From positions 2,872 through 66,871 of the forward strand of contig CAZGWH010000001.1 of the NCBI GenBank assembly GCA_964529325.1: a stretch of 64,000 bases of DNA, in the 5' to 3' direction. A program made the position numbers and the translations under genes. Of the stretch, positions 34,281 to 38,640 are shown piece by piece (the first letter of the stretch is position 1; each line of letters opens with the position of its first letter). The stretch comes from an uncultured bacterium (GTDB lineage: Bacteria; Fidelibacterota; Marinisomatia; SCGC-AAA003-L08; GCA-2689995). The notes beneath the pieces are model-generated. The model was not told the origin of the DNA, did no database searches, and saw only the letters and a list, made by a program, of their open reading frames with translations.

Positions 34281-34487
34281 ATGAATTTTATTCATAATTT
34301 AAGTTTATTTGATAAACGATTACGAGTTTTACTGGGCATATTCTTTGAAATAATTGCTGTATTAATTCCGTTTAGTTTTTGGTTGAAAATAATTTTTCTC
34401 ACAATGTCAATTTATGGAATTGGAACAAGCGCAATTGGAGTATGCCCAATATATAAAATATTTGGAATCTCAACATGTTCAAAATAA
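34281..34487 (+). CDS. DUF2892 (YgaP-like) membrane protein
   Basis: NLSLFDKRLRVLLG...GVCPIYKIFGISTC. Confidence 0.8.
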   Translation: MNFIHNLSLFDKRLRVLLGIFFEIIAVLIPFSFWLKIIFLTMSIYGIGTSAIGVCPIYKIFGISTCSK

Positions 34488-34497
34488 AACCCGTATA

Positions 34498-35442
34498 ATG
34501 AAAATTAAAAATGACTATGGGCCAATTGTTTTATTTCAATTTGGAAAATATTATTTTACTACATTTGGATTTCTTCTTGGTGTTGGCACACTCCTCGGAT
34601 TCATCCAATTTTTATTTTTTTTAGGATATAGAGGTGTAACATTAGAATCTAAATTAATTTCTCAGTTAATTTTATATATTGGTATTTCAATCCCTTTAGG
34701 CTCTTATTTAATGGCACGATTTACAGATATTCCAAAATTAATAACTGGAAAATTATTATTAAAAAATTACTTTAGAATTCCTGGATTTAGCTTTTGGGGA
34801 GGGTTGATTTTAGGAGGATTAATTATAATCATTTTTTCATTATTTCATCAAATACCATTGTTATGCTTAACCGATTCTTTAGTAATTGGATTATCGTTTG
34901 GTCAAATATTTGGGCGTTTAGGATGTTTAAATTATGGATGTTGCCATGGTATTGAGTGTGAAAACAATTCATGGTTTATTAAATATAATCATCCTAATTC
35001 CAAGGTTTACCGAACAGACCAACGCTTAATTGGCAAACCACTATATCCAACACAAATTATTTCAGCATTAAGTAATTTCATTATTTGGACTATTTTAATT
35101 TCTATGACTATTGGTATAAATAATATGTCAACCGGAATTTTAACAATTATCTATTTAATATTATTTAGTCTAAAACGCTTTTTAATAGAATTTTATAGAG
35201 GTGAACTTCCTCGAACAAATTTTTTCACTTTTACACTATGGCAATGGCTAAGTATAATTTTGTTTTCAATTGGAATTTATATCACAATTCATTTAAGTGG
35301 GTTTGAACTGCCTACTAAATTATTACATTCATTTGAAATGGGAATAACTTATGTTTATGATTCTATTTCAATTGTGTTAATTACTGTATTCATATTAACA
35401 TCAATTTACTCTTTTCATTATCGAAAAGTTGGATCTTGGTAA
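34498..35442 (+). CDS. Divergent Lgt-family (prolipoprotein diacylglyceryl transferase-like) membrane protein
   Basis: FSFWGG, FGRLGCLNYGCCHG, YPTQI, FLIEFYRG; start placed at ATG 34498. Confidence 0.8.
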   Translation: MKIKNDYGPIVLFQFGKYYFTTFGFLLGVGTLLGFIQFLFFLGYRGVTLESKLISQLILYIGISIPLGSYLMARFTDIPKLITGKLLLKNYFRIPGFSFWGGLILGGLIIIIFSLFHQIPLLCLTDSLVIGLSFGQIFGRLGCLNYGCCHGIECENNSWFIKYNHPNSKVYRTDQRLIGKPLYPTQIISALSNFIIWTILISMTIGINNMSTGILTIIYLILFSLKRFLIEFYRGELPRTNFFTFTLWQWLSIILFSIGIYITIHLSGFELPTKLLHSFEMGITYVYDSISIVLITVFILTSIYSFHYRKVGSW

Positions 35443-35444
35443 AT

Positions 35445-35654
35445 TTATTTATTATCTTTAAAAATAATTTTCGAAATAATTATTCCAAAGCAATATCCAT
35501 TTATAGAAGCACCCAAAAACATTGTAGGTGGAATAAATAGTAACCAATGCACATTTTCAATTCCACTTAATAAAATACCCGTCCACAAGAAACATCCAGA
35601 TATAAAAAAGAAAAATCGTTGAAATGGTTTTAATTTATGAGATTTAAGATTCAT
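35445..35654 (-). CDS. Small DUF2892-like membrane protein
   Basis: Two TM segments and ASINGYCFG motif. Confidence 0.6.
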   Translation of the reverse strand: MNLKSHKLKPFQRFFFFISGCFLWTGILLSGIENVHWLLFIPPTMFLGASINGYCFGIIISKIIFKDNK

Positions 35655-36192
35655 ATTTTACTTTCAATGAAATTGGTTTAACAATCAATGGTAAAAGTAT
35701 ATGTACCATTCCTAATACCACACCACCTATTACAGCTTGCCATGATATAAAAATTGCAAATGGCGTAACATCGTATAATGAATTTGTTGACTTCAAACTC
35801 CATTGACTAAACTCAGTCATTCCAAATAATATAAACAAATATGTAAAATGTAATCCATTAGCAATAATATGCACTAAATATTCTTTGTCTGGCAGACCAC
35901 CCATTAATTCACGACTATCGTATTCAGTTAATATATCAACTACAAGCACGATAACATCAATTAGAGCTAAAAAAAGAGCCACCCAGAGTAAAACTCCACT
36001 TATATTTTTTATGAGTAAAAGATAAATGATAGTAGGAAATAATAAAGCTCTCGCAGAATGAAGCCAATGTTCATATCGAGATTCTTCCCATTTGTAGAGT
36101 TTAAATTTCCAAATATGATAATAAAAACCATCAATAAGCCCAATTCCAGCAAATAGTGCAATTATAATAGCGATGTATGTAGTTGAAATCAA
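35644..36192 (-). CDS. Multi-TM hypothetical protein with conserved-looking His/Glu residues
   Basis: DGFYYH, EHWLH, EYLVH motifs within TM helices; co-oriented with arsR. Confidence 0.65.
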   Translation of the reverse strand: MISTTYIAIIIALFAGIGLIDGFYYHIWKFKLYKWEESRYEHWLHSARALLFPTIIYLLLIKNISGVLLWVALFLALIDVIVLVVDILTEYDSRELMGGLPDKEYLVHIIANGLHFTYLFILFGMTEFSQWSLKSTNSLYDVTPFAIFISWQAVIGGVVLGMVHILLPLIVKPISLKVKYES

Positions 36193-36205
36193 AATTTATC
36201 TCCTT

Positions 36206-36523
36206 TTAACAACACGAATTTAACACATCTAAAAAAGAATTGAGATTAGTTTTAATTGATTTAAAATCAAGACCATACACAACTTCTCGCCCCTGCTTTG
36301 TTTTTATCATTATACCAGACTCATACATCATGGACAAATGGCGAGATACATTAGACTGATTAATATCAATTTTTTCTGATACTTGTCCTACCGTCATTTG
36401 CCCATGTTCCATAAAGAGAAGTACAATTTCAGCTCTACTATTATCACTAAATGCCTTGAAAAAATTTCCAGACAAAAATGATTTACATTGTTTTAATAGT
36501 GATTTTCCGCAACAACTTCCCAT
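36206..36523 (-). CDS. ArsR/SmtB family regulator
   Basis: FKAFSDNSRAEI, QSNVSRHL, GREVVY; Cys pairs at both termini. Confidence 0.9.
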   Translation of the reverse strand: MGSCCGKSLLKQCKSFLSGNFFKAFSDNSRAEIVLLFMEHGQMTVGQVSEKIDINQSNVSRHLSMMYESGIMIKTKQGREVVYGLDFKSIKTNLNSFLDVLNSCC

Positions 36524-36535
36524 AATTAGATCTGG

Positions 36536-36784
36536 TTATTTAGATTTACTACAACAGTTAGAATCTGGTGAACAACAAGAACAACAGCAACATTTACCTC
36601 TCCAGGATCTCAAGACAAATCCAAGAACAATTAATGGTAATCCAAATACTGCAAGATGTCCACAGCAAGTAGCACAACATTGTCCAAATAATCCAATACT
36701 AACTAAATACGCACCCCCAACAAATGTTATAAAATCAATTAGACCATATAAATATTGGCAAGATTTACTTTTTTCGCAGTTCAT
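36536..36784 (-). CDS. Cys-rich two-TM membrane microprotein
   Basis: AAGGAG SD; 14 Cys in 82 aa including CCATCC and CCCCSCC...CC. Confidence 0.75.
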   Translation of the reverse strand: MNCEKSKSCQYLYGLIDFITFVGGAYLVSIGLFGQCCATCCGHLAVFGLPLIVLGFVLRSWRGKCCCCSCCSPDSNCCSKSK

Positions 36785-36812
36785 AATATCTCCTTTGTTT
36801 AATTATTTTATT

Positions 36813-36856
36813 TGCGTCAACACGCATAAGTTAAATATTATATGCATTTACACGCA
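36813..36856. promoter_or_regulatory. Tandem palindromic operator pair flanking a -10 box
   Basis: TGCGT-caac-ACGCA (36813-36826) and TGCAT-ttac-ACGCA (36843-36856); minus-strand TATAAT at 36842-36837 between them. Confidence 0.65.
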
Positions 36857-37038
36857 AGTATTTTAATAAAAAATCTTTTCTGTCGATTTATAAAATAATT
36901 TCAATAAAATTTGATATCAAAATCGGGATTACATAGGAAAATCAACACATGTCCTAACTAAAATTGAAGATTTAACTTTCATCAAAAGACATTCAATAAA
37001 AAGATTAAAAGGTGAAATATGTAAAAGCTGAATAAATA

Positions 37039-38640
37039 TTATTCTAAAATAATATTTACAATTGAAATTATATCAGAAATATTTACTTCATTATCCAAAT
37101 TTAAATCACTTAATGCTATTTGAGCATCGGATAATATAGAATTGCCCAACACATATTCAACAATTATAATTATATCTAAAATATTTAATATTGCATCATT
37201 ATTTACATTTCCCATAATAACAGAAATACATGTATTCATTGAAAATGGTGGGATGGAAATTTGATTTAATCCTGCTTCATAGGATCTATTTATAGAATCA
37301 TACCCATCAATTTCTTTCCTTAAAGTATCAGCTGTCCAATGAGTCCATAATAAGTCATTATTAAATGCATTTTCCACTGAAATAATAAGAGTCGTATCAG
37401 AGACATTTGTAATAATTCCAGATTCGTCAAAATCATTATTAAATTTCCAACCAAATAACCGAGGACAATTAATAAACTTTTCAATTCCGCCATTTGTTAC
37501 AAACATAATTGTATCAGAGAAGGATTCAGGAAATTGTAATTGTATATTTTCAGTCATATCCTTTGCCATCCAATCATATAACATCGCTGAAAATGCAGTT
37601 GCCCTTTTTTGAAAATGTTCATCTTCGCTATTATTAATAGCATCAAACCCTGTTGGCCCACCTACATTATGTGCAAGTAACATAGTAACCAAATTATTTC
37701 TCATTATATTGTCAGTCATTGATGATAAAAATAAGGAATGTAACCAAGTATTTCGATAAATATGTTCTTCTGATTTATCAAATAAATTATATTCTGTTAC
37801 CCAGATTTCATGATTTTGAATTAGTGCAGTTGTATCCTGAAATCCTCTCCATTCTTCTATTCGAGGGATATCAAAATATGGATAGCTAATAAATTGTCTA
37901 TCTGTATATCCCGCATGAGAATCTTTCATATATAAATATACATGCCAAGTTAAAGCATCAAATGAATCCGATTGAATATTTGCATATAAACTATCATTCC
38001 AATGAGTAGCTCTTTCAGAGTCCCCTCTATTCCCTCCAGTTATTGTTATTTTGGCTTCTGGTAATATAGTTTGTAGTGAATCAATATATATTTGGCAATC
38101 GCGAGCATAATCACCAGCTGTAGGGTATTTCGCAATATAAAATTCATTAGGATGATTTATTTCACTACCTAATTCTAAATTTCTAAATTGCATACCATTT
38201 TGCATCGCATTAGTAACAGATTCCATTGAGGTTCTAACATCCGTAGTAATCATATTCATAATAAAAATACCTTCTGCCCCAGTAACATTTAACGCATTTT
38301 GAAAATGAATAGGACGAATATCGATTTGAGGTAGGTTTATCCAATTATTTGGTAAAGTATCAACAGGAAGAGTATCATTAATTATTGGCTCATCTAAAAA
38401 CCAACCCGTTGCCCAATCCCAATATGAGGCACCTGAAGGGTATCGGAGGATATCAGGTTTCATTGTTGCCACAGAATCAGTAAACTCTCCATTAATCCAA
38501 GATGGCCCACGCACAGTATTTCCATTAAAACCATATTTTGGAACAGAACGAGTTTCCCCCAATGAAACTTCAATATCTTGAGAAATACTTATTGAAACCA
38601 GAAAAACTAAATTAACTAAAAGAAACCTCATAATTACCAT
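37039..38640 (-). CDS. Secreted clan GH-A-like glycoside hydrolase (GH79/GH51-like) with C-terminal dockerin-like domain
   Basis: Signal peptide; LRYPSG..YWDW, LELGSE, WHVY, IWVTEYN; tail GNVNNDAILNILD...SDLNLDNEVNISD. Confidence 0.72.
   Translation of the reverse strand: MVIMRFLLVNLVFLVSISISQDIEVSLGETRSVPKYGFNGNTVRGPSWINGEFTDSVATMKPDILRYPSGASYWDWATGWFLDEPIINDTLPVDTLPNNWINLPQIDIRPIHFQNALNVTGAEGIFIMNMITTDVRTSMESVTNAMQNGMQFRNLELGSEINHPNEFYIAKYPTAGDYARDCQIYIDSLQTILPEAKITITGGNRGDSERATHWNDSLYANIQSDSFDALTWHVYLYMKDSHAGYTDRQFISYPYFDIPRIEEWRGFQDTTALIQNHEIWVTEYNLFDKSEEHIYRNTWLHSLFLSSMTDNIMRNNLVTMLLAHNVGGPTGFDAINNSEDEHFQKRATAFSAMLYDWMAKDMTENIQLQFPESFSDTIMFVTNGGIEKFINCPRLFGWKFNNDFDESGIITNVSDTTLIISVENAFNNDLLWTHWTADTLRKEIDGYDSINRSYEAGLNQISIPPFSMNTCISVIMGNVNNDAILNILDIIIIVEYVLGNSILSDAQIALSDLNLDNEVNISDIISIVNIILE

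Follow-up and report, generated by a model that had tools for sequence, protein, structure and literature searches.

Here, we analyzed a 64,000-nucleotide stretch of DNA (the window) from an uncultured bacterium of the Fidelibacterota (Marinisomatia; SCGC-AAA003-L08; GCA-2689995), which covers positions 2,872 to 66,871 of contig CAZGWH010000001.1 in assembly GCA_964529325.1, and focused on a gene for a small Cys-rich membrane protein and on the ArsR-family repressor gene that directly follows it. The source genome is 2.3 Mb in size, has a G+C content of 29%, and is 100% complete. Four open reading frames (ORFs) of 82, 105, 182, and 69 residues are packed on the minus strand within 35445-36866 and are separated by gaps of 12, 13, and -11 nucleotides. 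The first gene of this putative operon (36784..36536, minus strand) translates to MNCEKSKSCQYLYGLIDFITFVGGAYLVSIGLFGQCCATCCGHLAVFGLPLIVLGFVLRSWRGKCCCCSCCSPDSNCCSKSK, a predicted hairpin of two transmembrane (TM) helices with 14 Cys among its 82 residues, which we refer to as the microprotein. It carries a CCATCC motif between the two hydrophobic helices and ends in the tail CCCCSCCSPDSNCC, so that the description given in a first-pass annotation of this DNA is borne out by direct reading of the ORF. The second gene (36206..36523, minus strand) encodes a 105-residue repressor of the ArsR/SmtB family that starts with MGSCC and ends with SCC, as the same annotation had stated.

The microprotein gene is real. 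A strong Shine-Dalgarno sequence, AGGAG (36790..36794, minus strand), can be read directly from the sequence 5 nucleotides upstream of the ATG and is kept in three relatives (G001, G025, and G008). The ratio of nonsynonymous to synonymous substitution rates (dN/dS) against three relatives is 0.07-0.20, indicating purifying selection, and the Cys content of 17% is the highest among the genome's ORFs of at least 60 residues, where the genome mean is approximately 1.0%. A 136-residue Gln-rich ORF on the opposite strand (36456-36866, plus strand) is antisense to the microprotein gene and recurs in relatives. The possibility that the microprotein is itself an antisense artefact was considered and rejected, as it is the minus-strand frame that possesses the Shine-Dalgarno sequence, the low dN/dS, and insertions and deletions that stay in frame; the plus-strand ORF is the mirror image of the run of Cys codons and is not a gene. 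A second Cys-rich ORF, located on contig C80, proved to be an antisense artefact.

Judged by sequence searches, the microprotein represents a previously undescribed family that is confined to Marinimicrobia. Relatives were identified in 14 of 61 genomes of the same order and in 23 of 401 genomes of the phylum, where they are spread over several orders of a single class. A collection with one genome per species contributed 21 loci, and metagenome contigs contributed 131 stretches with homologs. Among 1.84 billion representative proteins, 16 matched at E<=1e-3 and nine at E<=1e-10, and the labels of the relatives all read Candidatus Neomarinimicrobiota or Marinimicrobia, i.e. SAR406. Two marginal look-alikes (P0025 and P0026; E about 6e-4) turned out to be Cys-free hairpins and were set aside. 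Neither Pfam nor NCBIfam contained a family that matched the microprotein at E<=1, and a search of the family profile against all Protein Data Bank (PDB) chains at E<=10 returned three chance-level matches only, none of them a Mer protein. In one genome, two paralogous copies lie approximately 2 kb apart on the same strand (G216:C65; L034 1305-1559 and 3266-3523).

The Cys pattern, whose conservation the first-pass annotation had proposed to check by a homolog search, is kept throughout the family, with a total of 12-16 Cys in every one of the 22 members compared. By region, one to three Cys precede the first helix (TM1), two to four occupy the loop, none to six lie inside the helices or at their ends, and three to nine are found in the tail, which holds eight in the microprotein of the window. 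While this total stays constant, individual Cys positions drift. The residues that are invariant in all 22 members include K7, Y11, L12, D17, F21, V22, G24, L27, S29, and G34, as well as C41, G48, L49, P50, G55, W61, C65, and C66, with C9 and C37 close to invariant. The invariant vicinal pair C65-C66 opens the tail right behind the second helix (TM2). The invariant Asp in TM1, together with the pattern of Gly and Pro residues, suggests specific helix packing or oligomerisation. An AlphaFold2 model built from the 22-sequence alignment (mean predicted local distance difference test score [pLDDT] of 64, and 76-82 in the helices) placed helices at residues 5-33 and 41-62, joined by a 7-residue loop and followed by a disordered tail (63-82). 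Nearly all family members carry a net positive charge at the N-terminus, and their loops are either neutral (17 of 22) or have a charge of +1 (the remaining five). The topology predicted from these charges keeps both termini cytoplasmic and exposes the loop on the outer side.

The repressor passes the curated cut-offs of HTH_5 (PF01022; 6e-12, 45.7 bits against 22) and NF033788 (62.4 against 55), in line with its earlier designation as an ArsR. Its best relatives in the PDB are CzrA, HlyU, CmtR, and CadC, with the match limited to the helix-turn-helix core. Its five Cys (C4, C5, C13, C104, and C105) are all terminal, forming a CC-x7-C motif near the N-terminus and a CC pair as the last two residues, with none between residues 14 and 103, and this arrangement is common to all microprotein-linked ArsRs. 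Such an ArsR adjoins the microprotein gene in 6 of 23 distinct genome loci and in 7 of 77 metagenome loci with complete genes. The synteny check proposed by the first-pass annotation thus found a pair that recurs in at least three families and in two gene orders: the microprotein gene comes first in the window genome (G000) and in G001, G008, and G025, and the ArsR gene comes first in G016, G262, and their metagenome relatives. The gene order must then have changed by rearrangement, or the pair must have come together repeatedly; either case favors a functional coupling of the two genes. Across the 23 genome loci, the ArsR is the only neighbor that recurs for what appear to be functional reasons, and all other recurrence reflects lineage synteny. 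In G002, which was considered as an empty-site comparison, the whole neighborhood is absent and thus offers no such site.

Upstream of the microprotein gene, a consensus scan identified a putative sigma-70-like promoter (36837..36866, minus strand) composed of TTAAAA, an 18-nucleotide spacer, and TATAAT, with 10 of 12 positions matching; this is a consensus match only. Two predicted operator sites bracket the TATAAT box. Site 1 (36813..36826) is a perfect TGCGT-N4-ACGCA palindrome (TGCGTCAACACGCA) flanked by the -10 box on one side and the ribosome-binding site on the other, and site 2 (36843..36856) is an imperfect TGCAT-N4-ACGCA version (TGCATTTACACGCA) in inverted orientation, spaced 30 bp from site 1 and directly next to the -10 box. 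Both sites are kept in G001, G025, and G008. As the perfect palindrome of site 1 occurs only once in the 2.3-Mb genome, the regulon of this ArsR probably consists of this operon alone. Both sites of the window also fit the TATGC-N8-GCAnA frame of ArsM-linked ArsR promoters, and TATGCATATATGCGCAT is a promoter element common to the ArsM-linked ArsRs and the microprotein-linked ArsRs of G016 and G262. No terminator-like site was found within 35200-37050.

The genomic context of the ArsR's closest orthologues provides hints toward its ligand. Full-length orthologues with 40-50% identity and the same five Cys directly adjoin the gene for the arsenite methyltransferase ArsM in five genomes (G212, locus L044; G165, L046; G150, L047; G326, L048; and G227, L049), and the two ArsM proteins that were checked, those of G150 and G165, score 322-326 bits against the NF008823 cut-off of 263. 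Because orthologues with the same Cys and a related operator adjoin ArsM, a trivalent arsenical, rather than sulfur, is the likely inducer. Other ArsM-linked ArsRs of the phylum differ in their additional Cys, yet all of them have the terminal CC; overall, the C-terminal vicinal pair is present in 13 of 13 Marinimicrobia ArsRs and an N-terminal CC in 10 of 13. In two genomes, G001 (L070, C45) and G034 (L071, C82), the microprotein and ArsM are both present, and the ArsM there is partnered by a different ArsR, with SC in alpha3, CYC in the wing, and a terminal CC, which resembles the ArArsR type of Arsenicibacter rosenii. G001 therefore contains two ArsRs of the arsenic type, each with its own target. 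An ArsR linked to hgcAB in P. mercurii was also considered but is not comparable, as its Cys positions differ.

Vicinal Cys pairs serve as ligands of As(III) or methylarsenite (MAs(III)) in AfArsR (C95, C96, and C102), CgArsR1 (C15, C16, and C55), and SpArsR (C101 and C102) (PMC11868830). The window ArsR resembles CgArsR in its N-terminal pair and AfArsR and SpArsR in its C-terminal pair, and its orthologues adjoin ArsM, as ArArsR does. Its particular combination of CC-x7-C with a terminal CC, however, fits none of the site types described (PMC11868830). Type 1 (R773) is defined by an As(III) site, CxCxxC, in alpha3 (PMC11868830), and this site is absent from the window ArsR, whose alpha3 region (MTVGQVSEKI) has no Cys; the position of the alpha3 CVC of R773 is empty, as are those of C41, C80, and C82 of ArArsR. 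Types 2 and 3 each have a third ligand that the window ArsR lacks. In type 2 (AfArsR), As(III) is bound with a third Cys six residues behind the C-terminal vicinal pair; C104-C105 is present in the window ArsR, but the protein ends there and has no third C-terminal Cys. In this it resembles SpArsR, which is selective for MAs(III), provided that the site is not completed by the N-terminal Cys. In type 3 (CgArsR), an N-terminal vicinal pair is combined with an equivalent of Cys55 contributed by the other subunit, and a Cys in the alpha3 region is found only in the G016 and G262 proteins and not in the window ArsR. Judging from these comparisons, the ArsRs with CC-x7-C and a CC at or near the C-terminus may constitute a further type of As(III)/MAs(III) sensor. 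Within our preferred reading of the locus, arsenic as the effector is a tentative assignment drawn from this context, to which we give somewhat less than even odds.

The distribution of arsenic genes was then compared with that of the microprotein. The 100%-complete window genome contains no ArsM, Acr3, or ArsB. Across the 401 phylum genomes, Acr3 is present in 111 and ArsM scores over the cut-off in 49. Acr3 occurs in only 1 of 22 microprotein-positive genomes versus 110 of 379 others (Fisher p=0.012, phylogenetically confounded). In the order to which the window belongs, only families f4 and f5 have Acr3 and only families f1-f3 have the microprotein, not counting a weak, partial microprotein match of 25 residues in G047, of family f5. 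The anticorrelation is confounded because this family split amounts to one or two evolutionary events, and it is at most suggestive, being compatible with a functional replacement of Acr3 rather than evidence for it. The families f1-f5 of the order all have small genomes (1.1-2.9 Mb). ArsM and the microprotein showed no association across the phylum genomes. Many of the Marinimicrobia ArsM-like matches with scores under the cut-off have a single TGA in frame (e.g. G043:C54, G089:C33, G084:C26, G066:C28, G024:C7, G014:C179, G018:C66, G035:C113, G037:C58, and G021:C1), which is consistent with the selenoprotein variants of ArsM listed in NCBIfam (ArsM_AhpD_UU and related).

The two remaining ORFs of the cluster fall outside the conserved unit. 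The gene behind the ArsR (35644..36192, minus strand) encodes a 182-residue membrane protein with five predicted helices, whose model (pLDDT of 50) is too low in confidence for a fold search. It had been called His-rich, yet it holds only 6 His in 182 residues; its motifs DGxYYH, EHxxH, and HxxxNxxH are nevertheless kept in homologs. As it starts only 13 nucleotides after the ArsR stop codon, it is probably co-transcribed here, but it follows an ArsR only in G000 and G001, that is, in the window's own genus. Homologs with 30-41% identity were found in 17 of 301 genomes of the class. In family f10 (L090-L092), the homologous gene overlaps the end of a 265-residue Lgt-like gene, to which it is translationally coupled. 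The Lgt-like gene is preceded by a gene for a permease of PF03773 (ArsP_1) that bears a TPFCSC motif, and a Tes/TrsS-like radical SAM gene lies still farther upstream. Given that the NCBIfam models nearest to the permease, below cut-off, are SaoE and SO_0444, and that the cluster includes the radical SAM gene, an arsenic theme for the 182-residue protein could not be sustained; the f10 cluster may instead form a membrane-lipid or thiol-lipidation module. An Lgt-like gene is also present in the window (34414-35442, plus strand), convergent to the microprotein operon. Since the conserved partner of the 182-residue protein is an Lgt-like enzyme, its gene does not belong to the microprotein-ArsR module.

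The last ORF (69 residues, hydrophobic; 35445..35654, minus strand) overlaps the end of the 182-residue gene by 11 nucleotides and is doubtful as a gene. The first-pass annotation had likened it to DUF2892, a label that did not hold: searches of Pfam (E<=1, with a repeat at E<=0.01) and NCBIfam returned no match, PF11127 (DUF2892/YgaP-like_TM) included, and BLASTP against a true DUF2892 protein located 1 kb away (34281-34487), which itself scores 44.9 bits with PF11127, gave E=1.1. In addition, one of its Trp codons, TGG, is replaced by an in-frame TAG in the sister genome G001 (L019 5131-5340), and the ORF may be decaying or no gene at all. A conserved module of all four genes was thus rejected, with the 182-residue gene following the ArsR only in the window's own genus and the 69-residue ORF broken in G001; the module comprises the microprotein and the ArsR alone.

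Taken together, we infer with a probability of roughly one half that the microprotein and the ArsR form a self-repressed operon in which the microprotein acts as an arsenic- or thiophilic-metalloid-inducible thiol sink at the membrane or as a relay resembling MerF. According to this proposal, an ArsR dimer would bind the two inverted sites of the TGCGT-N4-ACGCA type on either side of the -10 box and would be released once its terminal Cys (C4/C5, C13, and C104/C105) ligate a thiophilic trivalent metalloid, with As(III) or methylarsenite as the most likely ligand. The induced 82-residue protein would then insert into the membrane as a helical hairpin whose termini both lie in the cytoplasm, offering two to four loop Cys outward, a further one or two immediately before TM1, and three to nine on the flexible tail. 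These thiols would bind the toxicant at the membrane, and the outcome would be either a stoichiometric sink, analogous to a membrane-anchored metallothionein, or a MerF/MerT-like relay between the two membrane faces. A more far-reaching version, which we consider possible but doubtful, holds that the microprotein is a novel type of arsenic resistance determinant, namely a membrane-anchored poly-thiol decoy or relay for As(III)/methylarsenite under a further ArsR type, replacing Acr3 and ArsM in streamlined SAR406 lineages that lack both; such a decoy or relay might guard against methylarsenite released by ArsM-bearing neighbors in low-oxygen water.

Several observations weigh against the proposed arsenic-inducible thiol sink or relay. 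Approximately 75-90% of the microprotein loci have no ArsR neighbor, and the genomes concerned lack this ArsR clade. With the microprotein mostly encoded in its absence, the ArsR is a regulatory layer added in certain lineages to a protein that would also work on its own, and the core role of the microprotein need not be specific to arsenic. Genes of the ars type are absent from every microprotein locus, and the proposal assumes that the ArsR retained its effector specificity after a switch of target gene, while the ArsR tree gave no resolution on a single origin of the microprotein-linked ArsRs. The conserved C-terminal CC of ArArsR is dispensable for sensing (PMC11868830), so that conserved Cys are not proof of a ligand site. 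Finally, a stoichiometric sink would be an inefficient defence, and a relay would have to work passively, with no evident energy source.

The operon could alternatively serve soft metals, with the microprotein acting as a membrane metallothionein for Zn, Cd, or Cu(I) or as a MerF/MerT-like carrier of Hg(II), and the ArsR as a sensor of the SmtB, BxmR, or CmtR kind. Metallothioneins are known to be controlled by ArsR/SmtB regulators, as in the SmtB/SmtA pair, and the microprotein has the size and layout of MerF (82 residues, two TM helices, an outer Cys pair, and a cytoplasmic CC). The best PDB relatives of the ArsR core by sequence include one sensor of Zn (CzrA) and two of Cd/Pb (CmtR and CadC), and a site of four sulfur ligands (S4) could arise from its five Cys. 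We nevertheless consider this explanation unlikely, since the ArsR lacks both the alpha5 His/Asp Zn site and the alpha3 CxC site, its closest orthologues flank ArsM rather than metal genes, no metallothionein or Mer family of Pfam matches the microprotein at E<=1 with PDB profile matches at chance level, and merA, merP, and metal pumps are absent near approximately 100 microprotein loci. A device for thiol redox or reactive sulfur chemistry has also to be considered, in which the ArsR would sense persulfide, polysulfide, or oxidants through disulfide or polysulfide bridges linking its terminal Cys and the microprotein would buffer sulfane sulfur or oxidants at the membrane, in water that is sulfidic or poor in oxygen. 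ArsR sensors that rely on Cys alone do exist, such as BigR and SqrR for persulfide and RexT for peroxide; the Cys of the outward loop could switch back and forth between thiols and disulfides, and the relatives come from low-oxygen or sulfidic sites, judged by the names of their metagenome-assembled genomes (NIOZ-UU, SI037, and Arabian9). However, the Cys of BigR and SqrR sit in the interior of alpha2 and alpha5, positions that are empty in the window ArsR, which scores only 30.5 bits against the cut-off of 155 with the BigR model NF040642. With sqr, pdo, rhodanese, and TauE genes absent among the microprotein neighbors, and the ArsM linkage of the orthologues favoring arsenic, we regard a reactive-sulfur role as distinctly improbable. 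Thus, of the metal or reactive-sulfur module put forward in the first-pass annotation, the conserved pairing with the ArsR was upheld, whereas the evidence on its ligand points toward arsenic.

The role of the microprotein might not be chemical detoxification at all but that of a structural or signaling partner, which would tether or inactivate the ArsR at the membrane via Cys-Cys or metal-bridged contacts, in a manner similar to SdpI/SdpR, or would carry a cofactor such as an Fe-S cluster. In support of this notion, the TM residues, including the invariant Asp of TM1, are more strictly kept than most Cys positions, the ArsR shows a sub-threshold match to SdpR (53.6 bits against 100), and both proteins bear terminal CC pairs. 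Yet most microprotein genes reside in genomes without this ArsR, and a fixed Cys total with drifting positions is typical of bulk thiol chemistry and not of a defined cluster, for which motifs of the CxxC type are absent too. This explanation appears to us the most remote of those weighed here.

The proposed thiol sink or relay shares features with several known systems while being identical to none. As in SmtB/SmtA and BxmR/BmtA, an ArsR/SmtB repressor lies beside a gene for a small Cys-rich protein, which it presumably controls, with derepression by the very ligand to which this protein would bind, making the metallothionein parallel drawn in the first-pass annotation an apt one, even though no metallothionein family, soluble or membrane-bound, matches the microprotein. 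In contrast to SmtA and BmtA, the microprotein is a predicted two-TM membrane protein rather than a soluble, zinc-finger-like fold, and the window ArsR differs from SmtB and BxmR in lacking the alpha5 and alpha3N metal sites and in having orthologues that flank ArsM. MerF is characterized by a small two-TM hairpin with outer-face Cys and a cytoplasmic CC. In its predicted topology, the microprotein resembles MerF, MerT, and MerE, being approximately 80 residues long and forming a two-TM hairpin with Cys on the outer face and a cytoplasmic CC just after TM2; as modeled, with two to four loop Cys and the CC behind TM2, it matches the working layout of a Mer transporter, which is suited to passing a thiophilic ion through the membrane. 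It shares no detectable homology with MerF, MerT, MerE, or MerC, however, possesses 12-16 Cys rather than four, and occurs in a context from which merA, merP, and merR are absent. The CYSTM proteins of eukaryotes, which have been implicated in tolerance to metals or stress, are tail-anchored by a single TM helix with Cys within or next to it. The microprotein is likewise a small membrane protein with a Cys-rich juxtamembrane stretch, but it is bacterial, has two TM helices, and did not match this or any other Pfam family at E<=1. Our search of the literature found no report of a bacterial membrane-anchored metallothionein. The regulatory logic of an ArsR-family repressor coupled to a Cys-rich binder is known, and here it appears to be realised by a new protein family.

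The ArsR and its operator could serve as a biosensor part, and both genes are very small and readily tested in Escherichia coli. If the proposal holds, a further type of ArsR sensing site would be defined. Bacteria of the SAR406 (Marinimicrobia) lineage are among the most abundant in the dark and oxygen-poor ocean, a setting of active arsenic cycling, and neither a canonical arsenite pump nor a methylase is evident in many of their genomes. For these organisms, a membrane poly-Cys protein under arsenic-type regulation would represent a new way of handling thiophilic toxicants and a bacterial membrane counterpart to the metallothioneins.

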